Assembly (NCBI GenBank): GCA_026184295.1
Contig: JAHCJK010000002.1
Coordinates: 10,946 to 74,945 of the forward strand
DNA from: Planctomycetota bacterium
GTDB taxonomy: Bacteria > Planctomycetota > SZUA-567 > H5-PLA8
Direction: 5' to 3'
DNA: 64,000 bases
The number at the start of each line of letters is the position of its first letter. Position 1 is the stretch's first letter. The position numbers were made by a program, and so were the translations under genes. The notes below the pieces were generated by a model, which saw only the letters and a program-made list of their open reading frames with translations, was not told where the DNA came from and ran no database searches. Below, one piece after another: positions 6,032-54,565 of this stretch.

Positions 6032-7255
6032 ATGCTCAACGCCCTCGTGCTGGCCTTCCAGGCGCTCAACGCGAACAAGCTGCGCTCGGCGCTGACCATG
6101 CTCGGCACGATCATCGGCGTCGGCTGCGTCGTGGCGCTCTGGAACGTCGGCGGCAGCGGGCGCCAGTTCGTCGGCGAATCCCTGGAATCCTTCGGCCGCA
6201 ACCTGCTCATCGTCAGCCCGCGCTACGGCGGCGACGAGGAGGACCAGCGCCGCAACAAGTACCACCCGCTCAAGGTGTCGGACGTGACCGAGATGCAGGA
6301 ACTCAGCCCGTCCGTGCAGGACGCCTCGCCGGTGATCTTCAGCGGCGCGCGGGCGATCTACGGCGCGCGCTTCTGCCGCGCGGAAGTGAACGGGTGTTTC
6401 CCCTCGTACCTGACGATCCGCAACTGGACCCTGGAACTCGGCATGCCCTTCAGCGACGCCGACGTGCGCAGCGGCAACCGCGTCGTGCTCCTGGGCGCCG
6501 ACGTCGCGCGCGAACTCTTCGGCGCGCTCGACCCGACCGGCCGCGTGATCCGCCTCGACCGCGAGCCCTTTACCGTCATCGGCGTGCTCAAGGCCAAGGG
6601 CTCGCTCTTCGGCAGCAAGCAGGACAACGTGATCCTGGCGCCGTTCACCAGCATCGCCGATCACATGGGCTGGGGCCGGCAGGTGCACGTGATCTTCGCG
6701 TCCGCGCGCACGCGCGACCTGATCCCGCAGGCCAAGAACGAGATTCGCCTGGCGATCCGCGAGATTCAAAGCATCGCGGCCGACCGCCGGGACCCGGTGG
6801 ACGTGAAGGACCTGGGCGAGATGGCCGATGCGGTGGACCGGACGCTGCTCGCGTTCACCCTGCTGCTCGGCGCGATCGGGATGATCTCGCTGCTCGTCGG
6901 CGGCATCGGCATCATGAACATCATGCTCGTCTCGGTGACCGAGCGCACCCGCGAGATCGGCCTGCGCATGGCGCTCGGCGCGACCGACTTCGACATCCTG
7001 ATGCAGTTCCTGGTCGAATCGATGGTCCTGGGCGGACTGGGCGGACTGGTGGGCGCGGCCGGCGGCGCTGGCATGGCCGCGCTCACGGTCAAGGTCCTCT
7101 CGATGCTGATGGAACGCCCCTGGCCGTTCGTGCTCAGTTGGGCGTCGGTGGCGGCGTCGCTGGTCTTCGCGGCCTGCGTGGGCCTCTTCTTCGGGCTCTA
7201 CCCGGCCTGGCGCGCCAGCCGTCTCGATCCCATCGTGGCCCTGCGCCGCGAGTAG
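6032..7255 (+). CDS. ABC transporter permease (FtsX/MacB-type)
   Basis: N-terminal TM helix, large periplasmic domain, C-terminal 3-TM FtsX domain. Operonic with ATPase gene. Confidence 0.85.
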   Translation: MLNALVLAFQALNANKLRSALTMLGTIIGVGCVVALWNVGGSGRQFVGESLESFGRNLLIVSPRYGGDEEDQRRNKYHPLKVSDVTEMQELSPSVQDASPVIFSGARAIYGARFCRAEVNGCFPSYLTIRNWTLELGMPFSDADVRSGNRVVLLGADVARELFGALDPTGRVIRLDREPFTVIGVLKAKGSLFGSKQDNVILAPFTSIADHMGWGRQVHVIFASARTRDLIPQAKNEIRLAIREIQSIAADRRDPVDVKDLGEMADAVDRTLLAFTLLLGAIGMISLLVGGIGIMNIMLVSVTERTREIGLRMALGATDFDILMQFLVESMVLGGLGGLVGAAGGAGMAALTVKVLSMLMERPWPFVLSWASVAASLVFAACVGLFFGLYPAWRASRLDPIVALRRE

Positions 7256-7267
7256 CCGCGCGGCCGG

Positions 7268-7903
<636 letters not shown>

Positions 7904-27522: not shown

Positions 27523-27983
27523 TCATTTAGGGGGTTTTGGCTTGAGCGTCCGGGCCAGGATGCGGGCGACGTCACGGGCTACGTGGCCGACTTGTTCGTC
27601 GAAGCTGGCGCGGCTGACGATCCGGGCGCAGCTTCGCGAGAGCATGAGGTTGACGCCCTGTTCCTGGCTGGGGCGGTAGTCGGTCCGGATGCCGATGATC
27701 GGCCGGCCCTTGGCGGCGGCGTAGCCGACTTCCCAGGCGGTCCCGCTGTCGCTGTCCGGGCCGTCCAGGATGGCCACGACGGCGTGGCAATCGTCCAGGC
27801 CCTTTACGCAGAGCTTGTAGACTTCCCCGAAGTGCCGGCGGTCGTTGTAGCGGGCGTGGGGCTTGAAGTCCTGCGGAAGGAGGACCTTCGCGCCCGGGAG
27901 CGAGGCCTCCAGTTGCGTGGCGAGTTCGCGGTTCCATGTGCGTTCGGCCTGAGTAAAGAGCGGGCCGGCCAGATAAATAATCA
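27523..27983 (-). CDS. nucleoside 2-deoxyribosyltransferase / Rcl (dNMP N-glycosidase)-like protein
   Basis: MIIYLAGPLF N-terminus and DSGTAWEVGYAAAKGRPIIG (catalytic Glu motif of the NDT family). Start coordinate +/-1 nt. Confidence 0.7.
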
Positions 27984-28071
27984 TGGTTCCTGCCCTCTTG
28001 GCTCGGCCCGCCGCTTGGCTCCGACAAAACGCCGCGCCGCGCGCGCCTGATACCCCGGCCGAACCCAAGAT

Positions 28072-28676: not shown

Positions 28677-29165
28677 CTAACGCCCGAAGAACCCCTCGTA
28701 GCTGGCCAGCGCTTCTTCCTGGGGCGCGCGGCGGGGACTGCCGGCGAGGATGCCGTCGAGGGCGCGCGCCAGGGCGGCGAGGCCGGCGGGTTGGTAGCGC
28801 GTATGATACGCGCGGCCGGGGCTTTCGCCCGGGTTCAAAAGAACGGGTTCCTGTTCGCAGATCGGGCCGGTGTCGAGGCCTTCGTCCGCCCAAAACCAGG
28901 TGACGCCCGAGACCCGTTCGCCGGCGTGGACGGTCCATCGGATCGCGTCCGGGCCTCGGCGGTACGGTAGGATCGACGGATGGAAGACGAGGACGCCTAG
29001 GCGTGGAGCGCGGAGTTCTTCCGGGCCGAGCTTGCGGGTCAACCGCGGCGCCAACGCGACCCACGCGCCGACGAGCGTCTCGCTGGGAAGGAAGCCCTTC
29101 GATTCTGCCAGGGCCGCGCAGCGCTTACCGTAATCGCCGGCGCCGTCGAACAGGTAGTATCTCAT
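28677..29165 (-). CDS. formyltransferase catalytic-domain-like protein (Fmt/PurN N-domain, truncated, catalytic Asn replaced)
   Basis: PRLGVLVFHPSILPYRRG aligns with PRLGCINVHGSLLPRWRG of Fmt (Asn replaced by Val, His kept). GVTWFWADEGLDTGPI matches GVTIMQMDVGLDTGDM (Asp kept). Only 162 aa. ATGA overlap with upstream gene. Confidence 0.7.
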   Translation of the reverse strand: MRYYLFDGAGDYGKRCAALAESKGFLPSETLVGAWVALAPRLTRKLGPEELRAPRLGVLVFHPSILPYRRGPDAIRWTVHAGERVSGVTWFWADEGLDTGPICEQEPVLLNPGESPGRAYHTRYQPAGLAALARALDGILAGSPRRAPQEEALASYEGFFGR

Positions 29166-30301
29166 GCGTTGGGCTCTCCGTAATACCTGAAACCCTGTAC
29201 GGCGCGGAAATGGCCTCCGTAGCCGGCATTCCCTAGCTCCGGATTTTTGAAGCAACCGCGGGCCGCCGCGGCCTGGAGCGTCCGGATGCAGCGCGCTTTG
29301 TCGTCGCCGTGAAGGCTGGCGGAAACCTGCGTCCAACGGGGATCTCGCCGAAGCGCCGCGGCTAGGCCCGGGTGGCTGGTGTGGAAGAGCGTGAGGAGCG
29401 GGAGCGCGTAGCGATTGAGGCCCTGGCGCCAGCGTTCGCAGAGCGCGTTGAGGAAGCGCAGGCCGACGCCGGCGCCCTGCCATTCGGGCATAACGACGAG
29501 GCGGCAGGCGCGGGCTTCCGAAAGGCCCGGGCGCGTGGAGAAGGCGACGTGCGCGACGGGTTCGCCGTCTACCGTGCCTACGTAGCAGGTCGCGGCGATC
29601 ATCTTGGGAAGTGCTAGATAGTGATGCGGTGCAAAAAGTTTCCAGTAACGCCAATCCGTCTCCCAAAGTTCGAGGTCGAAGCGCGGGCGTCGCCAAAGAC
29701 CCCTCCCGGCGTACTTCCCCGTCGCCGTGTCGAAAACCCAATCGGGTTCGAGCCAATCGAGGATGTCGTAATGGCAGGAGAGCAGGACGCATTGGCCGGG
29801 CGTCCGGCGCCAGGCCTTCTGGAAGGCAAGGGCGCCGACCTTCGCGATCTGCCGGTCCACGACGCTCGTGAATTCGTCCACGACGACGCGGCGCGGGGCC
29901 TGCAGGACGATGCGGGCGAGATCGGCGCGGAAGCGTTCGCCGTTCGAAAGCACGGCGTACGGCCGGAGCCAGGCGGGCACGCTTCCGAGGCCTACGGCCG
30001 AGAGCGCGGCCGTAACGGCGTCGAAGTCGCCGCCGGGCGCGAGGGCGTCGATGATCGGTTCCGCGGCCGGCCAGCCCTGGGGTTTGTAGAGCGCGCCCGG
30101 TCCCCAAAGCGCGCGGCCGATGGACGTCTTCCCCGATCCGGACGGGCCGACGACGAGGCCGAGCTTCCAGGCGCCGTCTTCGACGGGGAGTTCGGCGTCG
30201 AGGTCGAAGTTGCAGCCGGATTCGACGTTGAAGAGGCTTTTGACGCGCGCGGCGCGGTAGCTTTGGAAGTCGCTGCAGCGGTGGCGAATTCGGATGTTCA
30301 T
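29162..30301 (-). CDS. ABC-type ATPase domain fused to GNAT N-acetyltransferase domain (soluble)
   Basis: Walker A GPSGSGKTS, ABC signature LSNGERFRADLARIV, Walker B/D-loop RRVVVDEFTSVVD, H-loop LLSCHYD. C-terminal GNAT motif A RLVVMPEWQGAGVGLRFLNAL. No TM domain. Real start ATG 30301 (ORF track 30307 is GTG). Confidence 0.7.
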   Translation of the reverse strand: MNIRIRHRCSDFQSYRAARVKSLFNVESGCNFDLDAELPVEDGAWKLGLVVGPSGSGKTSIGRALWGPGALYKPQGWPAAEPIIDALAPGGDFDAVTAALSAVGLGSVPAWLRPYAVLSNGERFRADLARIVLQAPRRVVVDEFTSVVDRQIAKVGALAFQKAWRRTPGQCVLLSCHYDILDWLEPDWVFDTATGKYAGRGLWRRPRFDLELWETDWRYWKLFAPHHYLALPKMIAATCYVGTVDGEPVAHVAFSTRPGLSEARACRLVVMPEWQGAGVGLRFLNALCERWRQGLNRYALPLLTLFHTSHPGLAAALRRDPRWTQVSASLHGDDKARCIRTLQAAAARGCFKNPELGNAGYGGHFRAVQGFRYYGEPNA

Positions 30302-30495
30302 ACGCACACCACCTTGCAGCGGAGGCCGCTGCGCGTGAGGCGCGTGTAGGTTCGTTCCTGGGTTCGTTCGTCGTCGCAGACGACGATCACGGCGTACTGC
30401 CGGCGGTACTTGAACGTGACCGCGGCGCGGGCTTTGGGGGCGTGCAGTTTTCGCTTCGGGGCCGGCGCCGGTGCGCCGATACCTGCCTTAGGCAT
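30298..30495 (-). CDS. small basic protein (65 aa), translationally coupled to ABC-GNAT gene
   Basis: ATG with GGAGG immediately upstream (close spacing). TGA overlaps ATG of next gene (ATGA). Basic N-terminus, C-terminal Cys-containing segment. Confidence 0.45.
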   Translation of the reverse strand: MPKAGIGAPAPAPKRKLHAPKARAAVTFKYRRQYAVIVVCDDERTQERTYTRLTRSGLRCKVVCV

Positions 30496-30510: not shown

Positions 30511-30572
30511 TGTGTTCCCTTGAGCGCTTCCGGAAGGTCCGGCGGACGCAAGCCGCCTATTGTGTTCCCTTG
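30511..30572 (-). promoter_or_regulatory. direct repeats TGTGTTCCCTTG x2 (50-nt spacing) in promoter region of the cargo operon
   Basis: CTGTGTTCCCTTGAGCG at 30510-30526 and TTGTGTTCCCTTGGGCG at 30560-30576, 15-65 nt upstream of the small-protein ATG. Confidence 0.4.
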
Positions 30573-30630: not shown

Positions 30631-31044
30631 CTAACGCTTCCAGCCTTTGCCTTCAACCTTTCCGCGCTGGGGATGCTTGCAGCCGTAGAGGGGCAACGCT
30701 TCTTCCTTCCGGACCATGTTGATCCAGTGGCCCTTGAGCGTGCAGCCGCACCGGTCGCAGAAGAAGCGTTTCTTGCGCTCGTCGAAGCGGTAGTACTCGC
30801 AGGAACGGCAGGTTCCTTCGCGTTCGCGCTGAATCTCTTCCGAGACGTCCTTCGCGGTCAGCATGGCGGAACCGCCCGTGACCAGGCCGGCGAGGGTGAT
30901 TTCCTGTTCGTCGGCGATGATGCGGTTCACGTTGGCCATGAGGCCGGCGCGGTGCGCTTCCCAGCGTTCGGCGGGCAGGATGAAGGCGATGGGTTCGCCC
31001 GAATCCAGACGCCCCATGATCTTTACGAGCTTCTGCTTTTCCAT
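30631..31044 (-). CDS. hypothetical protein with C-terminal Cys4 zinc-ribbon
   Basis: CRSCEYY...CDRCGC motif; abuts next gene without gap. Confidence 0.5.
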   Translation of the reverse strand: MEKQKLVKIMGRLDSGEPIAFILPAERWEAHRAGLMANVNRIIADEQEITLAGLVTGGSAMLTAKDVSEEIQREREGTCRSCEYYRFDERKKRFFCDRCGCTLKGHWINMVRKEEALPLYGCKHPQRGKVEGKGWKR

Positions 31045-31467
31045 TCATTCGCCGCCCGGGATGCACGCGCAGAATTGGAGCACGTTCATGCACAGGTCCA
31101 TTTCTTCGTCGCAGTAACGGTCGATCACCGTGTAGTAGGCGCCCCCCGATGGGCAGTTCCCGCATGCATAGGTCGTGCATCCGGGCAAATCGTCCGTGCC
31201 GCAGGAGTCCGGCTCCGATACGCAGCCCGAAAACGAGACCGTCTCGACGGACTCGTCGCAACCAGGGTTCGTGCAGTCCTCGACCGTGGGATCGCAGGCG
31301 CAGCAAGGGCCGCTTGCGCAGCAGCAATCCGCCAGGCCCTGGAGCGTGCGCATGAGGCCGAGCTTGGCGAAAGCGAACAGGAGGAAGATCAACATCAGGA
31401 AGGCGTGGAGCCAGTTCCTTTCCTGGCCCAAGGCCTGGAGCGACGCGAGCAGTTCGGAGAAGCGCAT
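31045..31467 (-). CDS. membrane-anchored cysteine-rich protein (140 aa, 18 Cys incl. CCC and CCAC)
   Basis: N-terminal TM helix WLHAFLMLIFLLFAFAKLGL followed by Asp/Cys-rich domain. Confidence 0.5.
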   Translation of the reverse strand: MRFSELLASLQALGQERNWLHAFLMLIFLLFAFAKLGLMRTLQGLADCCCASGPCCACDPTVEDCTNPGCDESVETVSFSGCVSEPDSCGTDDLPGCTTYACGNCPSGGAYYTVIDRYCDEEMDLCMNVLQFCACIPGGE

Positions 31468-31469
31468 GG

Positions 31470-32210
31470 TTAGGGCGCCTCGTTGAGCTTGGAGGGCGAG
31501 ACGGCGAGTTCGTGGAGGTCGAAGTTCTGCCGGGGCTCGGGCGGTTCGCCTTCGCAGGAGAAGGAATCCGTGCCGAGTTCGATCTCCTGCGAGGCGATGA
31601 GGCCGTACGCGGAGACCGGATCGCCGAGGGCCTTCGTGACGCCGATGCGGTGCCAGTCGCCCGCGCGGGCGATGTAGAGGCCGTAATTCCGCACGAAGAC
31701 GAGCGCGCCGGCCGCGGGCGTGTAGCCGGTCAGCATGGCGCCGAGGCCGGTGAGGGTCTCGGCTTCCTTGGAGCCGTGGTCGATGCGGATCGGCTGGCTG
31801 AAGACGGGGACGACGACGTTCTCGGCATGGTATTCGAAGTGCCAGCGTTCGAAGCGCCGCCCGCCGCCGCGGACGTAGATGTCGGCGTCGAGGAGGTAGC
31901 GCGAGAAGGTATAGGCCCGGCGCCAGCGGTTTCCGGCCGTCGCGTTGGGGTTGAAATCCCAAATGCCGTTCTCGGTCTCGGCTGACTGCTTCCAGACGAG
32001 GACGCGGCAACGGCCGTTCGCCGCGTGGACGGTCGCGCAGCTAAGGGCGTCGAAGGGATTGTTCGTGTCGGGCGCGTCGGGAAAGTTCGTGTCGTCCCAG
32101 GTGGCCAGGTCGCAGACGATGCGCAGCGGTTTCGGGCGCGTGTTCGGATTGTTCCGAAGACGCGCGTCGAACTGCGCCGTGTAGGTATGCTGGGACTCGG
32201 ACCGGAACAT
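31470..32210 (-). CDS. phage hypothetical protein (246 aa)
   Basis: Starts 2 nt after stop of 720-aa gene. Trimmed from ORF 31470..32618. Confidence 0.5.
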   Translation of the reverse strand: MFRSESQHTYTAQFDARLRNNPNTRPKPLRIVCDLATWDDTNFPDAPDTNNPFDALSCATVHAANGRCRVLVWKQSAETENGIWDFNPNATAGNRWRRAYTFSRYLLDADIYVRGGGRRFERWHFEYHAENVVVPVFSQPIRIDHGSKEAETLTGLGAMLTGYTPAAGALVFVRNYGLYIARAGDWHRIGVTKALGDPVSAYGLIASQEIELGTDSFSCEGEPPEPRQNFDLHELAVSPSKLNEAP

Positions 32211-32212
32211 GT

Positions 32213-34375
32213 TCACCCACAAATCAAGGCGGTGCGCGGAACGTCGGGTTCGTACCGAACGTCGGTCAGGCGGCGGTTGACGGGGTACGAGCCCGCCGCG
32301 CCCTGGAACTTGATCGAACCGAGCATCATGCCGGCGCGGAATTCCGGCCGTATGCCCGGGAGGTACCACTTGCTGCGCTTGATGATCGCGGCCTTGTCGG
32401 CGAGACGGCGCGCGCAGTGCCCGCCGATGCCCGCCTGGTCTGAAAGGAGGACGCGGGTCTTGGCCTCGTTGCCCATCGGGACGCTCTTGACCTGATGCTG
32501 TTCGCGGAAGCCATCGGGCGAAAGAATGTTGAACTGGAGGCCGACGCGGTTCTTGCGATCGCTGAGGCTCGAATCGACTTCGCCGGCGACGTTGTTCGCG
32601 TCGAAGGCGTCGTCCCAAAAGATGTCCCGGTGCGCGAGGATGCGATGGTCGTGCAGGACCACGGCGTTCAACTTCAAGCGCTTGAGCGCGACGTCGTCGG
32701 GATCGACGAAAAAGCTGCCCGTGTAGATCAGGTTCGTCGGATCGCCCTGTTCGTCGGTAAGGCCGTCGAGGTACAGCAGGCCGTCCGCCTGGATGCGCAG
32801 GCCGTTGTTGTACGGGGCATCGTGGTACTCGCCGCCGTTCTCGTCCTCGCTTAGGCGCAGGCGGACGGGCCAGTTCATGCGGCCGCGCTTCTCGCCGTCC
32901 TCTTCGAAGAACGGCTGAACCTGTTCTTCCTCAATCGAGCGGCTGACGCCCAAGAGCGGATAGCGGTCGTTGGGGAAGCGGGTCTTCACGCCTTCCATGA
33001 GCAGCTTGAGGGAAGCGCCGCCGGCCGTGTTGTCGGCCGTGGGCTGGATCATGAAGGCGCGGAAGGGGCGCGGGAGACACTGGCGCGCGAACTGAAGGGC
33101 CTCGGGCGTTTTGGCGCGGATCGCCGGGCGCCCGCCCGTTCCGTCGAACGTGAGCCACTTCGTGGGTTCGGAGACGCCGGCCAGAACGTCTTCGGGGCGT
33201 TCGGGGCCCTGCATCCAGGTCCCGTCGCCGGCGATGATGAAGACGAAGGCCTGTTCTTCGACGTCGGTCCACGCTGGGATGAGCGTGCTGCTGTCCGGGT
33301 TTCCGTTCCAAACGAGTTCGAGTTCGATCTCGATGCAGCCGCCTTCGACGACGACGCCCGTCGCGAACTCCGAGGCGTCGCCTTCGGCCTCGAAGTCGTA
33401 GACGGTCTTTACGTCGGCGACGGCGCCCGAGCGCTGCAGAGGCAGATGCACGAGCCCCGTGTCGCCGACGTAGGTCCCGCTCTCGGCCGGGGCGCGCATG
33501 TGGAAGGAGATCACGGTCTTTCCGCCCGCGTACGTGGCGTGGAGGCCGTAGTCGCAGCCGATGTCGAGGGTCTTGATCAGCGCGCCGAAGAGGCGTTCGC
33601 CGTAAAAGGGCGTGTCCGGCATCTTCATGCGCATGCGGCTGGCCGGCGCGAAGCTCGGCGCGGGCCAGGAGAGCTTGTTCGTGTCCATCTTGACCCATTC
33701 GGGATTGACGCCGTCGCCCGGGTTGAAGAGCGCGCGGAGGCGCAGGTACGAGATGTACCGTTCGGGCGTCCAGTCCGTGGCGACGCCGATCTCCGGATTC
33801 TGCTGGTCCGCGTCGAGCCATTCGCCGTTGGTGCCGACTTCGGCGAGTTTGGTGTAGGCGTAGAAACTTCCATCGATCCCGGTCACGGAAACCTTGCAGC
33901 AGTTCCGGTAGCCGCGCGGATTGACGCGGTCGAGGTAGCGCGGCGCGAAGCGCACGGCCTGCGCGTACGGGTCCCACACGAGCGCGCCGCGCATGGGAAT
34001 GCCCATGAGGAGGCGGAGATCGCTCTTGTAGGTCAGGTGGATTGCGTTGGCCGTGCCCATTTCGCGGCGCTTCTGCAGGTTGCCGATGAACTTGGTCTCG
34101 CCGTTCATGGTGATCTGGACGCGCGAGAAATACTTGAGGTTCTTCGAGGAGGCGTAGCTGTCCGGCTTGAGCGTGATCGGGCCGCGTTCGTCGTTGCCGG
34201 CGATGTTGCGGATGGAGATCAGGGCCGAGGAGAGCACTTCGTCCACGCTGTCCTGGAGGACTTTGACTTCCGCCCAATCGAAGGCCGCGGCGCCGTCGCC
34301 CAGGCTGGAGACGACGGGCACGACGCGCGGGACTTCGAGCTTGGGGGACGTTTCGACGACGCCGAAGGCGGGCAT
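32213..34375 (-). CDS. phage virion structural protein (720 aa; tail/ejection or spike-like)
   Basis: Large low-Arg, Asp/Gly/Thr-rich protein typical of tail/baseplate proteins; position after fiber genes. Confidence 0.55.
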   Translation of the reverse strand: MPAFGVVETSPKLEVPRVVPVVSSLGDGAAAFDWAEVKVLQDSVDEVLSSALISIRNIAGNDERGPITLKPDSYASSKNLKYFSRVQITMNGETKFIGNLQKRREMGTANAIHLTYKSDLRLLMGIPMRGALVWDPYAQAVRFAPRYLDRVNPRGYRNCCKVSVTGIDGSFYAYTKLAEVGTNGEWLDADQQNPEIGVATDWTPERYISYLRLRALFNPGDGVNPEWVKMDTNKLSWPAPSFAPASRMRMKMPDTPFYGERLFGALIKTLDIGCDYGLHATYAGGKTVISFHMRAPAESGTYVGDTGLVHLPLQRSGAVADVKTVYDFEAEGDASEFATGVVVEGGCIEIELELVWNGNPDSSTLIPAWTDVEEQAFVFIIAGDGTWMQGPERPEDVLAGVSEPTKWLTFDGTGGRPAIRAKTPEALQFARQCLPRPFRAFMIQPTADNTAGGASLKLLMEGVKTRFPNDRYPLLGVSRSIEEEQVQPFFEEDGEKRGRMNWPVRLRLSEDENGGEYHDAPYNNGLRIQADGLLYLDGLTDEQGDPTNLIYTGSFFVDPDDVALKRLKLNAVVLHDHRILAHRDIFWDDAFDANNVAGEVDSSLSDRKNRVGLQFNILSPDGFREQHQVKSVPMGNEAKTRVLLSDQAGIGGHCARRLADKAAIIKRSKWYLPGIRPEFRAGMMLGSIKFQGAAGSYPVNRRLTDVRYEPDVPRTALICG

Positions 34376-34482
34376 CTATTCCTCATCCTGGTAGGCGTAA
34401 TAGAACATGGAGAGCCCGGCCGTGAAGGGCGCGAGCAGGAGCGCTTGCCAAAGACGGAGGCGCGGCAGCCGGTGCCAGGGCA

Positions 34483-34737
34483 TTACATAAATCTCCAGTA
34501 ATCGAACCAACCACTGATCACCTGGCCAAACCACTCCAAGAGCGCGCCGATGTTCACTTTTGAAAACAGCCAGGAGAGCGGTGGAATCCAAATAAGAACG
34601 GTTCCGCCAACTGCGCATCCGTATCCAATAGGAAACCCTTCGATGCCGAAGAACCTAATCATCATGAACGCAAGAAGTGCGCCCGCTCCTGCGAACAATG
34701 CCGAGATAAACAGCGCGAACCAAAAGACATCCTTCAT
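34483..34737 (-). CDS. small membrane protein (holin-like, 84 aa), low GC
   Basis: Two to three TM helices, locally AT-richer DNA. Overlaps second small membrane ORF 34376..34618. Confidence 0.4.
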   Translation of the reverse strand: MKDVFWFALFISALFAGAGALLAFMMIRFFGIEGFPIGYGCAVGGTVLIWIPPLSWLFSKVNIGALLEWFGQVISGWFDYWRFM

Positions 34738-39873: not shown

Positions 39874-40482
39874 CTAAATGAGCCCGCGGAGGCTTGCGCC
39901 GTCCGAGATTCGGGCGATGACTTGCGTGATGAGTTGGTCGCGGCGCGCGAACATGGGCGCGAGTTCTTCACGCGAGGCCGGCTGATAGAACGGGCGTACG
40001 CGGTTCAAGCGCGGGGCATAGTCGCTCAGGCTGTTGGACGCGCCGAAACGGAGGCCGCCCCAAAAGGCGTTGGCGCCGGCGACGGACAGGTTGCGGGACT
40101 TCTTCCGATGGCTACCGCCGCCGACGTAGCGCGGGGCCGCGCCGTCGCGGAACTGTTTGACGATCCGGTCGGGCGTGACGATGCGCCGGCCTTTCGTCGC
40201 CGCAGCTTTAAGCAGGCCGGAGCGCTGCAGAATCGGATGGTCGGCGGGGAAGCCGAGGCGCGCGCGCTGGCGGGCCGTGGACTTGGCCAGGCCGCGCCAG
40301 GGTTGGCCGGCCGAAGCGCCCTCGGTATCGAAGCGGCGTTCGATCAGGTCCTCGACCCAGCCCTCCCGCGCGAGCTGCTCGTTGACGCGTTGCGCGAGGG
40401 CGCGCGGATCGCGGAGGTAGCGCAGGGCCGAGTTCGCGCGGCGAAGCTGGCGGATGTAGTTTTCGCGGAGTTCGCCGGGCAT
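39874..40482 (-). CDS. phage hypothetical protein (202 aa)
   Basis: Basic. ATGA-type junction with downstream gene at 40482. Confidence 0.55.
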   Translation of the reverse strand: MPGELRENYIRQLRRANSALRYLRDPRALAQRVNEQLAREGWVEDLIERRFDTEGASAGQPWRGLAKSTARQRARLGFPADHPILQRSGLLKAAATKGRRIVTPDRIVKQFRDGAAPRYVGGGSHRKKSRNLSVAGANAFWGGLRFGASNSLSDYAPRLNRVRPFYQPASREELAPMFARRDQLITQVIARISDGASLRGLI

Positions 40483-48583: not shown

Positions 48584-49612
48584 TTAATTGCCGGAGTAGT
48601 TGTGGATGCTCTCGACGAGCGGCAGTTCCTTGTGGTTCTCGTACCCCACGGACCAGTTGGCCGAGGACTTCAGGGCCGTCAGCGAGGGGTTCGCGCCGCC
48701 GGCGCCCGAGTTCCAGCCCATGTGGTCGGACTCGATGACGAAGTCGTAGTCCGCGCGCCATTGCGTGGTCTTGGTCTCGCGTTCGATGCGGCGGTCGGTC
48801 TCGATCTGCACGGGGCGGATGAAGCCCCCGCGCATGACGCCCGGACCGGCCAGAAGGGTGATGTACTTGTCGTACCCGGCGTCGGCGACGGTCAGGTCGG
48901 CGTTGTCCACGAAGGCGCGTTCCATGCCGTACACGTTGCGGCCGTCGTCGCCCTGGAGGTGCAGGCCCGCGACCATGTCGATGGCGCGGCCGTTCGCGTC
49001 GGTGCTGAGGTCCTTCTTCACCTCGGCGCGGGCGAGCAGCCAGCGCAGCACGCCGACGCGGTCGCCCATGAGGAAGCGGGCGCGGTCCAGCACGTTCGGG
49101 TCGAAGTTGGTGCGGGTCGAAGCGTTCCAGACGGTGTCCGTGTGCGCGCCGGCCGTCATCGCTTCCACCATGCCGATCAACGCCGCGATGAAGATGTTGC
49201 TCATGTCGTCGGCGACGATCTCGCCGGCCTGCCGGCCGAGTTCCGCGCTGATCTGCGCGGGCGAGAGGCCCATGAGGAAGATGTCGTCGGTGAACTCGAC
49301 GAGCGGAGTGCGGCGGTTCAGGATCACGCCCTTGTTGTTCCCGCCTTCCACCTTCACGGCCGTCAGCGCGCTGTTGCTCGTGATGTCGCGCCGTTCCGCG
49401 GTAACCGCGCGCTTGAAGTACGGGTTCTCCGTGTACTGCCCGCCCTTGCCGGCGTAGGCCGGCTGGTTCTGCAGGAAGATCGGGCGCTCGGGACCGCCGA
49501 CCCAGGTCTTGAGCAGTTCGTAGGAGCGCGTCACGAACGCCTTTTGCATGTGGGCGTTCATGATCTGCGGCACGGGCGTGAAGTCCGAAGGGAGCGAAGT
49601 TCCGGTTGCCAT
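48584..49612 (-). CDS. phage major capsid (coat) protein
   Basis: 342 aa. Position directly after scaffold gene in terS-terL-portal-scaffold-coat order. Confidence 0.65.
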   Translation of the reverse strand: MATGTSLPSDFTPVPQIMNAHMQKAFVTRSYELLKTWVGGPERPIFLQNQPAYAGKGGQYTENPYFKRAVTAERRDITSNSALTAVKVEGGNNKGVILNRRTPLVEFTDDIFLMGLSPAQISAELGRQAGEIVADDMSNIFIAALIGMVEAMTAGAHTDTVWNASTRTNFDPNVLDRARFLMGDRVGVLRWLLARAEVKKDLSTDANGRAIDMVAGLHLQGDDGRNVYGMERAFVDNADLTVADAGYDKYITLLAGPGVMRGGFIRPVQIETDRRIERETKTTQWRADYDFVIESDHMGWNSGAGGANPSLTALKSSANWSVGYENHKELPLVESIHNYSGN

Positions 49613-50573: not shown

Positions 50574-52181
50574 TCAGTCCTCGCGCTCGGCGGGTTTTTC
50601 GGCCGGACCTTTTTTCCTGCCTTGGTCGGGAGCCGGTGGCGGTTCGGGCGGCTTGAGGGCGTTGCGCAGCGCGGCCTCCGGCCGCGGGTCCTTGTCGCGA
50701 AGCGCTTCGATCTCCTTCTTGATCTCGTCGAACGATTGCTCGTCGAGGTTCGGGAGCAGGCCTTGCACGCCCTTAAGCAGCAGTTGAATCGCGGCGCCGT
50801 TGACGCCGAGCGCGAGGAAGAAATCGACGGCCTCGGACAGGGAGGCGAATTCTTCCGCGGGGCTCGCAATGTCGAAGCTGTCCGGGAAGGTAATGGAGAT
50901 CGCCTTGGCGTCCGTTTGGCCTTCCGCGCGGCCGATGACTTCGAGCAACCACTGAAAGCCGGCCTGCAGGCAGATGCTGAGGAGAAAGAGAATCCGTTCT
51001 TCCGTGGTCTTGAACGTCCAGGCCTTCGAGACGCCCGACTGTTCGACCGCGACCGGAAGCGCCGCCGCCCCGTTCTTCCCGCCCGCGTCCTTCGCCTTGG
51101 ACACGAGCATCTGATGGATCGTCATGAGGTGCTGGATCGGCTGCGCGTCGGTATGCACGAATTCGAGGGCTTCGCCTTCGTTTCCCGTCAGCGCGTTCTT
51201 GTTCTTAAGCGGAATGAACCGGGAAGTTCCCAGTTCGAGTTCTTCGATCTCATCTTCGGTTCGATCTGTTTTGAGCGTGAGGATCGGGCAGAGCATGTAG
51301 GCCTGCCAAAGCAGTTCGCTCAATACCCACATGGCCGCAACGTCGGCCTGCGCGGCGCCCGCGAGGATCGGACGGCCGATCTTGTCCTTCTTCACCGGGA
51401 AGGGATGGAAAAAGCGGAAGGGAACGATGCCCGCGTTCGCCGCATCGGTAAAGCCGTGCTTGACGGGCGGGAAGGTTTCGATGCTGTATTTGCCGTCCTG
51501 AGTCGGCTGTTCAAGCTCCGTGATCTTGAACAGGGATATGTTCTCCCGGTCCACGATCCGGACGGTGTGGACCTTGACCGGTTTCGCGTTCCAGGTACCG
51601 GCCTCCAGGGAGACTTCGTGGAGCTTCACGTACACCAGGCCTTCGGCGTTCGAGGAGAAGTTGAGAATCTGCTCCGCCGAGTAGATCGCCATGTAGACGC
51701 GGCCGAGATCGCGGCTTTTCTTCTCGGCCATGGAAATCTCTTTACCCTGGAGTTCCTTGGGGACCGGGCGGCGGTCCAGAAGGATGCCGTGAAAGCCGTT
51801 GCACTGATCCAGCTCCGAGGACTTGGCGACGACGTCGAGCAGGGTCATGCCGGAAAGGGTCGCCTGCGTTTCAAGGTACTTCATCGAATCGGGCAGGGTG
51901 ATCGCGGGCGGAGTACGGCAAAGCGCGCCCTGGCGCGACTGGAGAATCCCGGGGGTCTCGGCGAAGACCGGCGTAAGACGCTTGCGCTTATCGTACTCTT
52001 TCTCGTGTTCGTTGAGGTGCTGCGGAAGGTACGTCTCCGTCTTCATGGCCGCGGGGCCTTCGAGCACGTCCTCGACGATCATCCATTGCTTCTGAAGCTC
52101 GTCGAGGTCGGAGCGTTTGGACAATAGCGCAGCCGCCAATTCGTCGGTCTTGGGAACGGCAGCCGGGGTTTGGATCGCCAC
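50574..52181 (-). CDS. phage portal protein
   Basis: 535 aa, directly downstream of terminase large subunit. Confidence 0.65.
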   Translation of the reverse strand: MAIQTPAAVPKTDELAAALLSKRSDLDELQKQWMIVEDVLEGPAAMKTETYLPQHLNEHEKEYDKRKRLTPVFAETPGILQSRQGALCRTPPAITLPDSMKYLETQATLSGMTLLDVVAKSSELDQCNGFHGILLDRRPVPKELQGKEISMAEKKSRDLGRVYMAIYSAEQILNFSSNAEGLVYVKLHEVSLEAGTWNAKPVKVHTVRIVDRENISLFKITELEQPTQDGKYSIETFPPVKHGFTDAANAGIVPFRFFHPFPVKKDKIGRPILAGAAQADVAAMWVLSELLWQAYMLCPILTLKTDRTEDEIEELELGTSRFIPLKNKNALTGNEGEALEFVHTDAQPIQHLMTIHQMLVSKAKDAGGKNGAAALPVAVEQSGVSKAWTFKTTEERILFLLSICLQAGFQWLLEVIGRAEGQTDAKAISITFPDSFDIASPAEEFASLSEAVDFFLALGVNGAAIQLLLKGVQGLLPNLDEQSFDEIKKEIEALRDKDPRPEAALRNALKPPEPPPAPDQGRKKGPAEKPAERED

Positions 52182-52194
52182 TGCTCAACTCCTT

Positions 52195-53700
52195 TTACGC
52201 GCGGGCAAGTTTGCGTCGCAGTTTTCCCGCCCGCCGCCAGTAGCCGTCCGCGGCCTGGCGCGTGCCTTCCAGACAAATGCGGACGCCCTTGCGAACGCGC
52301 GGGTTCTGGAGGCCGGGGAGCGCCACCGCTTCCTTGCCCTTCGCCGTTCCGGCAACCAGCGCGCGAACCAGGTCGATGCCCTGTGCGATCTCGCCTTTGG
52401 TTCCGCCCCTGATTTGACGATGGGCGACGGTGGGCACGTTCATCTGGCCGAGCAGGACAATCGAATCCGGGCGCGAGCGGTCCGCGACCGTGCGCTTGAT
52501 TGTCTCGCCGGCGCTGCGCTCGTAGATGCGGCGCGCGTGGTCCGGGACGCTCAGGCCTTTGCGCGCCGAATCGAGCACGTACATTTCGCGGTAGATGTGG
52601 ATGCGCCCGCGCAGGCCGAAGGTCACGACGGCGTACCGGATCGCGTCCATCGCGTGGTTGTTTTCGTCGGCCGGCTGCCCGTCCGGGCCGTTCGTGTACG
52701 CGAGGAATTCGTTGATCGTCTCGACGCACGACGGATCGACCGTCAGGCCGGGCGCTTCGCCGGGGATCTGCGCGATCCACAGGCAGACGAAGGGATCGAC
52801 GCCGCCAAAGTCGATGGCGCGGTAGCGAACCCAATCGGGGTGTACCGGGATTCGACGGACGAACCGCGCGTCTTCCGTGAAGAGCGCGTAGATGCGGCCT
52901 TCGGCGGACTCGAACGCTTCCTCCGGCGTGCGAGGATATTCCCGCTTCATGTACAGCGGGTCTTCTTCGTGCGATTCCTTTTCCTGCTTGTACCAGGCCT
53001 CGTCGCGCAACGGGTGCGCGTCCCAGCCGTAGAAGACGGGCTTGTATTTTTTCTTGCCGTTCTTCGCGAGCTTCCAAAGCTGGCGAAAGTGCCCGTCCGG
53101 ACCGCCCGAGGTCGTGAGGATGACCAGCTGGCCGTTGCCGGTTTCGAGCGTCGGCTCCGCGGCGTTGAGAATCTTCTTCAGCCACGGCACGTAATCGGCC
53201 TCGTCGATGATGACCAGGTCGGAGGCCAGCGAACGGAGCGCGCGCTTGGTCGGGGCGAAGGAACGAATCCAGGAACCGTGCCTCTTGTAGTTGAATTCGA
53301 GACGCGTCTTGCTGTCGCGCGTCGGGGTGCGCTTCAACCAGGCGGGCAGGTGATCGAGGACGAAGCGGCATTTGTCGAGGAAGTCGGCGGCGAATTCCTT
53401 GTCCTGCGAAATGACCGTAACCGTGTACATGCGGAAGTAGAGCACGCGCCAGACCGCGTAGGCCGCCAGCAGCCAGGTGAAGCCGAGCCGCCGGGCTTTC
53501 AGCAGGAGCAGCCATTCTCCTTTCAAGAGGCCCTGGCTGAATTCCTTCTGGCACGGATAGAGACCGAATGCGATCGGCTTGTGCGTCGCCTTGTCTTCGA
53601 TGAAGCAGAGTTTCGCGCACCAATAAAGGAAACCCGCGAAGCCGGCGACGATGCGCGCGACTTCGTCCTTGATCGATTTCTTGGAGCGCGTCCGGTTCAT
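52195..53700 (-). CDS. phage terminase large subunit
   Basis: 501 aa after trimming ORF 52195..54315 to MNRTRSKK. ATPase region LLLKARRLGFTW; C-terminal nuclease-like region. ATGA overlap with terS. Confidence 0.75.
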   Translation of the reverse strand: MNRTRSKKSIKDEVARIVAGFAGFLYWCAKLCFIEDKATHKPIAFGLYPCQKEFSQGLLKGEWLLLLKARRLGFTWLLAAYAVWRVLYFRMYTVTVISQDKEFAADFLDKCRFVLDHLPAWLKRTPTRDSKTRLEFNYKRHGSWIRSFAPTKRALRSLASDLVIIDEADYVPWLKKILNAAEPTLETGNGQLVILTTSGGPDGHFRQLWKLAKNGKKKYKPVFYGWDAHPLRDEAWYKQEKESHEEDPLYMKREYPRTPEEAFESAEGRIYALFTEDARFVRRIPVHPDWVRYRAIDFGGVDPFVCLWIAQIPGEAPGLTVDPSCVETINEFLAYTNGPDGQPADENNHAMDAIRYAVVTFGLRGRIHIYREMYVLDSARKGLSVPDHARRIYERSAGETIKRTVADRSRPDSIVLLGQMNVPTVAHRQIRGGTKGEIAQGIDLVRALVAGTAKGKEAVALPGLQNPRVRKGVRICLEGTRQAADGYWRRAGKLRRKLARA

Positions 53701-54158
53701 CAGAGGTCTTCCAGCGTGGGACCGTCCAGCGGCGCGGCCTTTCGCGACGCGGCCGGCTCCGGCCGCGGCTTCTGGCGGATGCGTTCGATTTCGCGAAGGA
53801 GGCGCGTGTAGAGTTCGACGAGCGTGCTGTCCTTCAGGTTCTGCAAGCGCGGCAATACTTGTTCCTGAACCTTCTTCAGAATGTCGAGGTCGCGCCCGCG
53901 GCTGGACGTGAGTTCCTCGCGCGCGCGGACTTCTTCCTTGGCCTGCGCGGCGTCTTCTTCGATGGCCTTCAGGCGCCGCGATTCGTCGTCGTAGATTTTC
54001 TCGAAGGCCTCCTCTTCCCGCATGCGGCGGATCGTCGCTTCGCCGATCTTGTCGAAGGTCTCGTACTCGGTGCGCAGCGCGCGGGCCGCGGCGCGAATGT
54101 TTCCGCCGGCGCGCGCGAGCTCGCGGGCGATGAGACGCTTTTGTCGGGGGGTGTACAT
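53700..54158 (-). CDS. phage terminase small subunit candidate (HTH)
   Basis: 152 aa, N-terminal HTH-like RQKRLIARELARAGGNIRAAARAL, coiled-coil; stop overlaps terL start. Confidence 0.55.
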   Translation of the reverse strand: MYTPRQKRLIARELARAGGNIRAAARALRTEYETFDKIGEATIRRMREEEAFEKIYDDESRRLKAIEEDAAQAKEEVRAREELTSSRGRDLDILKKVQEQVLPRLQNLKDSTLVELYTRLLREIERIRQKPRPEPAASRKAAPLDGPTLEDL

Positions 54159-54244
54159 GTTCGAAGAGGAGAAGCCGGGGAACGCGCGCGGGACGGGTCT
54201 GCTTTCGCTGCGCGCCCGCCGTTCCAGCCGGCCTCCCCAGCCTT

Positions 54245-54565
54245 TCAGGCGTGGAAGAGTTGTTCGACGTGCGAGGCCTTGGGATCGTCCTCCGGACGGT
54301 TGCCGTCCTGGTCAAGGTTCCCGTGATTTAACGCCCGCCGTTCTTTGCGAATCCAGTCGCGCATGCGCCAGTTCACGCGGCTGCGCCACCATGCGTAGGT
54401 ATGCCGGCCGGGGATTTCGAGGACGATCACGGCCGCGTGCTGCTTGAGATCGTCCTGCGTGGCCGCGTCGCCCGGCGCGATCCGGCGGGAAGCGATCCGG
54501 ATGTCGCGCGAAAGCTGGCGGCTCGCGCACATTTCCTGAGCGGAGAACCGCGGTTTCGTTTTCAT
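54245..54565 (-). CDS. phage hypothetical protein (106 aa)
   Basis: Start overlaps stop of 54562..54867. Confidence 0.4.
   Translation of the reverse strand: MKTKPRFSAQEMCASRQLSRDIRIASRRIAPGDAATQDDLKQHAAVIVLEIPGRHTYAWWRSRVNWRMRDWIRKERRALNHGNLDQDGNRPEDDPKASHVEQLFHA
54326..54334 (-). promoter_or_regulatory. GATTTAACG motif copy (CCCGTGATTTAACGCC)
   Basis: ~170 nt upstream of terS start. Confidence 0.45.

Follow-up and report, generated by a model that had tools for sequence, protein, structure and literature searches.

A 64,000-nucleotide (nt) stretch of contig JAHCJK010000002.1 from a Planctomycetota bacterium (assembly GCA_026184295.1), hereafter called the window, contains a prophage with two adjoining genes that encode unusual cysteine-containing proteins. 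Gene A (31045..31467, minus strand, including the stop codon) encodes a cysteine-rich protein of 140 amino acids (aa) and gene B (30631..31044, minus strand) a basic protein of 137 aa. Directly upstream of the pair lies gene U (31470..32216, minus strand), whose 248-aa product is best described, from its sequence relationships, as a virion protein of the fibre type. A and B are a new and rare pair of families in a known genomic role within a tail-fibre module. We propose, with a probability of about 0.45, that they are a co-translated accessory pair of the tail-fibre-like protein U and no host-directed membrane or metal cargo. The two open reading frames (ORFs) had been singled out in an original prediction made from the sequence alone; their positions were exact and their boundaries are those of the NCBI annotation (KIS92_00800 for A and KIS92_00795 for B, U being KIS92_00805).

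If the proposal is true, a new pair of families would be present in the familiar fibre-accessory slot, in phages of Planctomycetota. To our knowledge, viruses of this phylum are almost unknown. A subunit with 12 to 19 cysteines would also be an unusual way of stabilising a host-recognition tip. Known tips have histidine-ligated iron or zinc sites, or a four-cysteine iron-sulfur cluster. The practical value is limited, with a family of three loci, an uncultured host and no phenotype attached.

The U-A-B Module in Three Diverged Loci

Two further loci, both on metagenomic phage contigs, carry the same module. One, L001, was reached through a homologue of B (P0003), and the other, L004, a 32-kb contig of the European Nucleotide Archive (ENA), through a match to a profile of U (P0005). 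In L001, a homologue of U (L001:15-806, 50% identity) is followed by a 77-aa protein with 12 cysteines that begins MATVSLTGLDGCCCGC (L001:807-1040), by the B homologue P0003 (45% identity) and by a fibre-like protein. The order in L004 is a homologue of U (L004:10001-10843, 36% identity), a 118-aa protein with 19 cysteines (MATQSVTLGTSLGACCCDTGPCC..., L004:10844-11200), a homologue of B (L004:11197-11640, 41-43% identity) and a 420-aa fibre-like protein. In both cases the counterpart of A was assigned by its position and its motif. U, a cysteine-rich ORF and B are therefore found in the same order in 3/3 diverged loci. The junctions are tight: the gap between U and A is 0-2 nt, and A and B overlap by up to 4 nt or are up to 7 nt apart. 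In the window, 2 nt separate the stop codon of U from the ATG of A, and B starts with an ATG immediately after the TGA of A. In all three loci, A is acidic and B is basic; as the genes are also tightly coupled, this suggests that the two proteins form a complex.

The phages that carry the module have little else in common. L004 represents a siphophage whose capsid is of the HK97 type and whose tape measure (phrog_9483) is clear, and its trio is flanked by the tape measure and a 297-aa protein on one side and by the 420-aa fibre-like protein on the other. When all L004 proteins were compared with the window by tblastn, U, A and B were the only genes in common, besides a weak methyltransferase match. 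Another contig, L006, is related to L004 in its tape measure (34% identity), its 265-aa counterpart of the 297-aa protein (32%) and its fibre-like protein (61%). It encodes a 155-aa protein that resembles the N-terminus of U only, and it carries neither A nor B. Absence of the pair beside a short U suggests that A and B accompany the long C-terminal domain of U and form an exchangeable module with it.

The assignment of U to fibre proteins comes from more distant matches. Residues 39-126 of U match a segment of a giant fibre ORF, longer than 950 aa, in L005, a contig of the Joint Genome Institute (JGI). This segment itself matches phrog_2647, phrog_11518 (tail fiber protein), phrog_24595 and phrog_17264, with expectation values (E) of 1e-10 to 5e-35, and the L004 homologue of U weakly matches three of these PHROGs, annotated as tail-fibre or virion-structural. 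The window copy of U had no match in Pfam, PHROGs, NCBIfam or the PDB, and a scan of the JGI metagenomes with U returned only the distant fibre domain in L005.

Relatives of the three proteins are rare. A search with A by word index and full phmmer among 1.84 billion representative proteins retrieved A itself only. B and U had no match by tblastn in 50,697 cultured-phage records, scans of IMG/VR with the profiles of U and B gave no relatives, and a scan of GTDB genomes with B gave none either.

The fibre-like protein of L004 (L004:11650-12912) belongs to a family of 400-420 aa whose N-terminal 130 aa are very conserved (ATFGTYDTGTTR...NASTHPYFSAITW) and which also occurs in L006-L012 and L087. 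Its members are found in IMG/VR contigs as well as in metagenome-assembled genomes (MAGs) of Planctomycetota, Phycisphaeraceae and Gammaproteobacteria, with or without A and B, and have no Pfam or PHROG match.

Composition and Coding Status of Gene A

Past its first 38 codons, A encodes an acidic cysteine-rich domain of 102 aa (aa 39-140, 31048..31353, minus strand). The domain contains 17 cysteines, one fewer than the 18 given for the protein in the original prediction, together with 17 aspartate or glutamate residues, 2 lysine or arginine residues, several aromatic residues and no histidine. Its isoelectric point (pI) is 4.05, and the computed net charge of A is about -15. The CCC and CCAC clusters that had been described in an Asp/Cys-rich domain of about 100 aa are indeed there, formed by C48-50 and by C55, C56 and C58. 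With the 0.88% share of cysteine across 21 confident ORFs of the window, the binomial probability of at least 17 cysteines in 102 aa is about 5e-17. A has the highest cysteine density among the six-frame ORFs of the window, and its counterparts in L001 and L004 are the densest in cysteine on their own contigs.

Alignment of the three family members reveals a D/G-CCC-xx-GPCC ... DC.N.GC box and a Y.C ... D.Y..CD(D/E)(D/E) element, and two of the three proteins end with FC.CI. The CCC box itself (aa 47-58, DCCCASGPCCAC, 31294..31329, minus strand) is the best-conserved motif of the family, as judged from the alignment, from tblastn (43% identity across the box between A of the window and L004, E 3e-5) and from synonymous codons. 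A has no family at E<=0.1 in Pfam or NCBIfam and none in PHROGs, and a profile of the A family has no match in the PDB at E<=10.

The GC contents at the three codon positions of A are 0.55/0.50/0.85. High GC at third positions (GC3) does not by itself tell a frame from its in-phase antisense; the decisive evidence for coding is therefore comparative. The ORF is intact in the two diverged loci, and the conserved residues of the CCC box use different synonymous codons between loci. These comparisons argue that the frame is under protein-level constraint. Because the frame is kept in related phages, the objection that it might not be conserved there fails, and A is, on this comparative evidence, a real gene. 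The view that the prophage encodes a real and unusual cysteine-dense protein next to a zinc-ribbon-like protein is upheld in this respect.

In its composition, A resembles bacterial metallothioneins (SmtA/BmtA), which are likewise dense in cysteine, contain CC and CxC motifs and have little regular secondary structure. A might then be a phage-supplied cytoplasmic buffer or donor of zinc, copper or cadmium, with B as a zinc-handling partner and with no structural role. Indeed, the domain is 17% cysteine, with vicinal CC and CCC and with CxC motifs, little regular secondary structure is predicted for A, and the cysteine positions are loosely conserved in the family, as they are in metallothioneins. 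However, Metallothio_Pro and its relatives do not match A, be it in Pfam or in NCBIfam, nor is there a PDB match, and the description of A as metallothionein-like holds for composition but not for family membership. Unlike classical metallothioneins, the domain is strongly acidic, lacks histidine and has several aromatic residues; its gene lies in a virion module, and the window copy bears a membrane helix. The tight linkage with a fibre gene would also go unexplained. We consider a metal buffer quite unlikely.

Protein B

Protein B has a pI of 9.1. Its zinc-ribbon-like region (aa 79-122, 30679..30810, minus strand) has the pattern CxxC-x13-CxxCxC-x20-C, that is, C79-x2-C82, C96-x2-C99-x-C101 and C122, and alignment shows all six cysteines to be conserved across the three homologues. 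Two CxxC knuckles (C79/C82 and C96/C99), spaced within the range of about 10-20 residues that is expected of a ribbon, are thus invariant (n=3). A conserved tail, GCK(H/F)P..GKGWKR, follows the ribbon. B had been taken for a Cys4 zinc ribbon; the CxxC...CxxCxC arrangement is present, but with six conserved cysteines including C122 it is not a plain Cys4 site.

Known ribbons such as those of TFIIB and McsA share the CxxC...CxxC spacing with B and are among the zinc-ribbon models and PDB chains to which B has weak, sub-threshold matches. B nevertheless remains below the curated cut-offs (Zn_ribbon_recom, 14.1 bits for a cut-off of 25.3; Zn_Ribbon_TF, 14.6 bits for a cut-off of 29). It also differs by its two extra invariant cysteines and by a unique N-terminal domain of 65 aa. 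All three B proteins match phrog_13558, a family of unknown function.

A different role for the pair, in which A is the precursor of a ribosomally synthesized and post-translationally modified peptide (RiPP) and B its recognition element, was rejected, as no modifying enzyme is linked to the pair in L001 or L004.

The Hydrophobic N-Terminal Extension of A

Codons 1-38 of A (31354..31467, minus strand) encode an N-terminal extension that is present in this copy only. The Kyte-Doolittle mean reaches 2.2 over 19 residues at about aa 18-38, and AlphaFold2 predicts a single long helix at aa 3-44. Taken alone, these codons have GC contents of 0.58/0.32/0.92 by position. Such a low value at second positions (GC2) and high GC3 are typical of a hydrophobic coding segment in a 65% GC genome, and indicate that the extension is translated.

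In the homologues of L001 and L004, which start with MAT..., the CCC box comes after no more than 12-15 residues, and both proteins lack a hydrophobic segment and a signal peptide. Like Met1 of the window copy, their start codons lie directly past the stop codon of U, and a GAGG inside the last codons of U is common to the window and L001. Since the start site is homologous and the extension is absent in both homologues, the 38 codons would be an insertion after the homologous start, and the anchor appears to be an addition specific to the window copy and no family trait. Hence, of the single N-terminal membrane helix originally proposed, the strongly hydrophobic segment at aa 18-38 stands for the window copy, but the helix is not kept across the family. 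The idea that A is membrane-tethered, and presumably extracytoplasmic, does not hold as a family property. Because the homologues have neither a hydrophobic segment nor a signal, their cysteine-rich domain would normally be made in the cytoplasm, and obligatory periplasmic disulfide formation is unlikely for the family. In the window copy, the charges around the helix are balanced (R2, E5, E16 and R17 vs K35, R40 and D47) and favour neither the cytoplasm nor the periplasm as the side on which the cysteine-rich domain lies.

Two other interpretations of the N-terminus were discarded. A lipoprotein is not supported, as the residues before CCC (L-A-D) make no lipobox and lie 9 residues past the hydrophobic core, and as the homologues have no signal peptide. 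An internal start at Met39, by which the helix would be lost, is disfavoured by the GC3 and GC2 values of codons 1-38, by the position of Met1 relative to the stop codon of U, shared with the homologues, and because no evident Shine-Dalgarno-like sequence is found in the 30 nt before Met39. An extra internal start used besides Met1 is possible.

The helix bears on three other explanations of A. According to the first, A is a moron of the prophage, that is, a membrane-anchored, extracytoplasmic, disulfide-rich factor acting at the surface or in superinfection exclusion. The hydrophobic helix of the window copy is convincing and its codons are coding-like, A is near the prophage end and adjoins accessory genes, and its acidic cysteine-rich composition may recall extracellular disulfide and calcium modules. 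However, both homologues are devoid of helix and signal sequence, and A is locked between a fibre-like gene and the B gene in phages of different backbones. Moreover, no separate promoter-like site was found, and PADLOC defence models gave no hit at E<=0.01 for any of A, B and U. We regard a moron as unlikely.

A second explanation is that A is carried in the virion and delivered with the DNA, as an acidic decoy, an anti-defence factor or, in the window copy, a membrane-inserting ejection protein. Its very acidic character and its place in a structural module are in line with this, as is the helix of the window copy, since ejection and tape-measure proteins have such helices. Against it, A is not homologous to any known DNA mimic or ejection protein, a cysteine-rich composition is atypical for either class, and here too the missing helix of the homologues has to be accounted for. 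An injected protein is very unlikely in our view. The third explanation, a holin- or spanin-like lysis component encoded where the late operon ends, would fit a small protein with one N-terminal hydrophobic helix encoded past the tail genes. Yet the helix is not shared by the homologues, an acidic domain with 17 cysteines is foreign to holins and spanins, and no endolysin gene adjoins A; we judge this highly improbable.

A Proposed Fibre Accessory Pair

Small genes located right past fibre genes and co-varying with the fibre C-terminus typically encode fibre assembly proteins or adhesins, as do T4 gp38, lambda Tfa, Mu U and P2 G (Tfa/gp38 type, including Caudo_TAP). A and B behave in the same way: they are small, lie directly downstream of a fibre-type gene, and appear to be inherited together with its C-terminal domain and swapped with it, as seen from U-A-B in three loci and from the absence of A and B with the short U of L006. 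Another common feature is evolution faster than that of the neighbours, A having 31-43% identity (over partial alignments with indels) vs 36-50% for U. In sequence, however, A and B are not similar to these proteins, A matching no Pfam or PHROG family and B phrog_13558 only. The extreme cysteine content, the acidic/basic pairing and the zinc ribbon are also foreign to the Tfa/gp38 families.

Metal sites are common in tail tips. The protein gpL of phage lambda offers a tail-tip precedent for cysteine ligation, as it carries an iron-sulfur cluster with cysteine ligands (Tam et al., 2013, as cited in PMC13243795). Its cysteine-dependent cofactor site belongs to a siphophage tail-tip module past the tape measure, and the L004 trio lies in the same general neighbourhood. 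The lambda protein differs from A by having four cysteines in a folded protein of about 230 aa, compared with 12-19 cysteines in about 100 aa for the A family. Phage_tail_L, like the other Pfam families, matches none of A, B and U.

In the scheme that we favour, U, A and B would be expressed late, from the tail operon. Acidic A (pI about 4) would pair with basic B (pI about 9), its zinc-ribbon partner, and the complex would act on the long C-terminal domain of U, either as a small distal subunit retained at the fibre tip or as an assembly factor, like the products of genes past fibre genes elsewhere. Given homologues without an export signal, A would have to fold either in the cytoplasm or, after release, in the virion. 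In view of 12-19 cysteines per about 100 aa and little predicted structure, this fold would need cytoplasmic metal-thiolate clusters, disulfides formed after release, or both. The 38-aa hydrophobic extension would be a recent gain of the window prophage alone; it may hold A at the inner membrane until assembly or, alternatively, be a membrane-inserting element at the tip. We infer physical interaction, presence in the virion and metal or disulfide chemistry from the genomic and sequence context.

Several observations weigh against a fibre accessory pair. The linkage is sampled in three independent loci only, a small number. In the window, no fibre-like gene follows B, and A and B come last in the tail operon, close to the prophage end, where morons are found as well. 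The hydrophobic helix of the window copy is unusual for a fibre chaperone. Only 7 cysteine columns are invariant across the A family, and they define no clear metal site. The AlphaFold2 models are too low in confidence for use, with mean predicted local distance difference test (pLDDT) scores of 50 for A (single-sequence input) and 42 for B (2 sequences). Finally, A, B and U show no homology to characterised fibre chaperones, adhesins or metal proteins.

A bolder version of the fibre accessory proposal, which we think rather unlikely, is that phages of Planctomycetota have an exchangeable receptor-binding tip of an undescribed kind, made up of A, B and the C-terminal domain of U. There, a hyper-cysteine, metal- or disulfide-knotted A would be exposed or in contact with the membrane, B would be its zinc-ribbon chaperone, the helix would make A membrane-inserting, and the CCC-box proteins of other phages presented below would be distant members of the same principle. 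The probability that is left beyond the fibre accessory pair and its rivals goes to functions outside those considered.

The Prophage and Its Accessory Cassette

The prophage of the window is recognisable from its genes for the terminase large subunit (52195-54315), the portal (50574-52181), the major capsid protein (48584-49612) and a neck or tail-completion protein (39874-40482), all on the minus strand. From this last gene down to U, unassignable genes of structural size are found, and U, A and B form the final unit of the late operon. Searches of the PDB with the 720-, 530- and 424-aa tail proteins of the window were uninformative. Between the 530- and 720-aa structural genes lie two overlapping small ORFs (84 and 80 aa, 34376-34737, minus strand), with hydrophobic segments and no family match. 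Below about 27.2 kb, genes are host-like and include an M20 peptidase and a VWA/HEAT protein.

B is followed, after a gap of 135 nt, by an accessory cassette. Its order is a 65-aa protein (phrog_28816, 30298-30495, minus strand), an ABC-ATPase/GNAT fusion (phrog_11143, E 2e-148, 29162-30307, minus strand), a formyltransferase-like protein, a membrane protein and a nucleoside 2-deoxyribosyltransferase. A and B could be thought to belong functionally to this cassette, which is adjacent to them and on the same strand in the window, and an accessory region with neighbouring cargo had indeed been suggested. The distribution of the genes largely refutes this. The ABC-ATPase/GNAT protein is found in 61 cultured-phage records from very different hosts (best match 67% identity, gp29 of Burkholderia phage phiE255), vs none for U and B, and it is absent from L001 and L004. 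In these two loci, a tail-fibre-like gene stands next to the pair in place of the ABC-ATPase/GNAT gene, so that the pair does not always accompany the latter in related phages, as had been asked, and is inherited with U instead. The 135-nt gap, with a repeat of its own, also parts the two units. The A-B pair is unlinked to the cassette, and a function within it is the least probable of the explanations considered here.

The repeat in the gap between B and the gene for the 65-aa protein is an exact 12-bp direct repeat, TGTGTTCCCTTG, at 30511-30522 and 30561-30572, 50 bp apart. It occurs nowhere else in the window, where 0.11 such repeats would arise by chance, and it may serve the accessory cassette as an operator or a promoter element. 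A terminator or another structured RNA in the same gap was rejected, the z-score of the fold being +0.8, which is not significant.

The ABC-ATPase/GNAT protein is unusually conserved across phyla, being 55% identical to proteins of Gordonia, Porphyromonas and human-gut phages. Among the records listed, most are annotated as 'hypothetical' and one as 'ATP binding cassette-like protein'. Also beyond the tail module are the nucleoside 2-deoxyribosyltransferase-type and formyltransferase-like genes of the window (27523-27984 and 28677-29204, both on the minus strand). A gene of the former type (Nuc_deoxyrib_tr or DUF4406) is beyond the tail module in L004 as well (L004:12925-13545). Of the Formyl_trans_N profile, the formyltransferase-like protein of the window (175 aa) matches just the C-terminal half (positions 87-176 of 181). 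Both kinds of genes may have nucleotide or DNA-modification functions.

CCC-Box Proteins of Other Uncultured Phages

The CCC box recurs in larger proteins of other uncultured phages. A scan of IMG/VR with a DNA pattern for CCCxxGPCC gave 71 loci, mostly out-of-frame noise, and two genuine proteins, L025 (L025:2751-3557, minus strand) and L026 (on contig L084, L084:~6974-7432), which carry the box by construction, having been picked by it. A follow-up profile scan added L086 (L086:6992-7519) and L087 (L087:7001-end). A similar protein (L009:4063-4716) was found independently in a Phycisphaeraceae MAG, L009, reached through the fibre-like protein. These proteins, for which no annotation was found, start with MG.IQFW.GK(I/V)LF..G(K/Q).A....CCC..GPCC. 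Most of their genes are directly past a tail or fibre-like gene whose product ends with ...W..HTGT.C; in L009, an opposite-strand gene lies in between.

Like A, the CCC-box proteins have a D-CCC-xx-GPCC box near the N-terminus and are encoded in a slot past a tail or fibre-like gene. They differ from A by their size (150-270 aa), by a conserved G-K-I-L-F strand at the start, by another family of upstream genes and by the absence of B homologues. Common ancestry of the two families is not supported, as hhalign aligns the 18-column box only, with a probability of 21%. The repeated occurrence of CCC-box proteins downstream of fibre genes is still in keeping with a functional slot like that of A.

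In L009, a hydrophobic N-terminal extension (MGLLACMVIVGVALIALG, L009:4063-4116) precedes the consensus start, in parallel to A of the window. It could reflect recurrent gain of a membrane helix, or merely an upstream in-frame start codon. One of the genes upstream of a CCC-box gene encodes a collagen-like protein (L026:4962-5519). Past the CCC-box gene of L086, four consecutive genes (L086:7830-11562) encode cysteine-free, low-complexity proteins of 215-528 aa, rich in glutamine, glycine, asparagine and methionine, which may be internal or ejection proteins.

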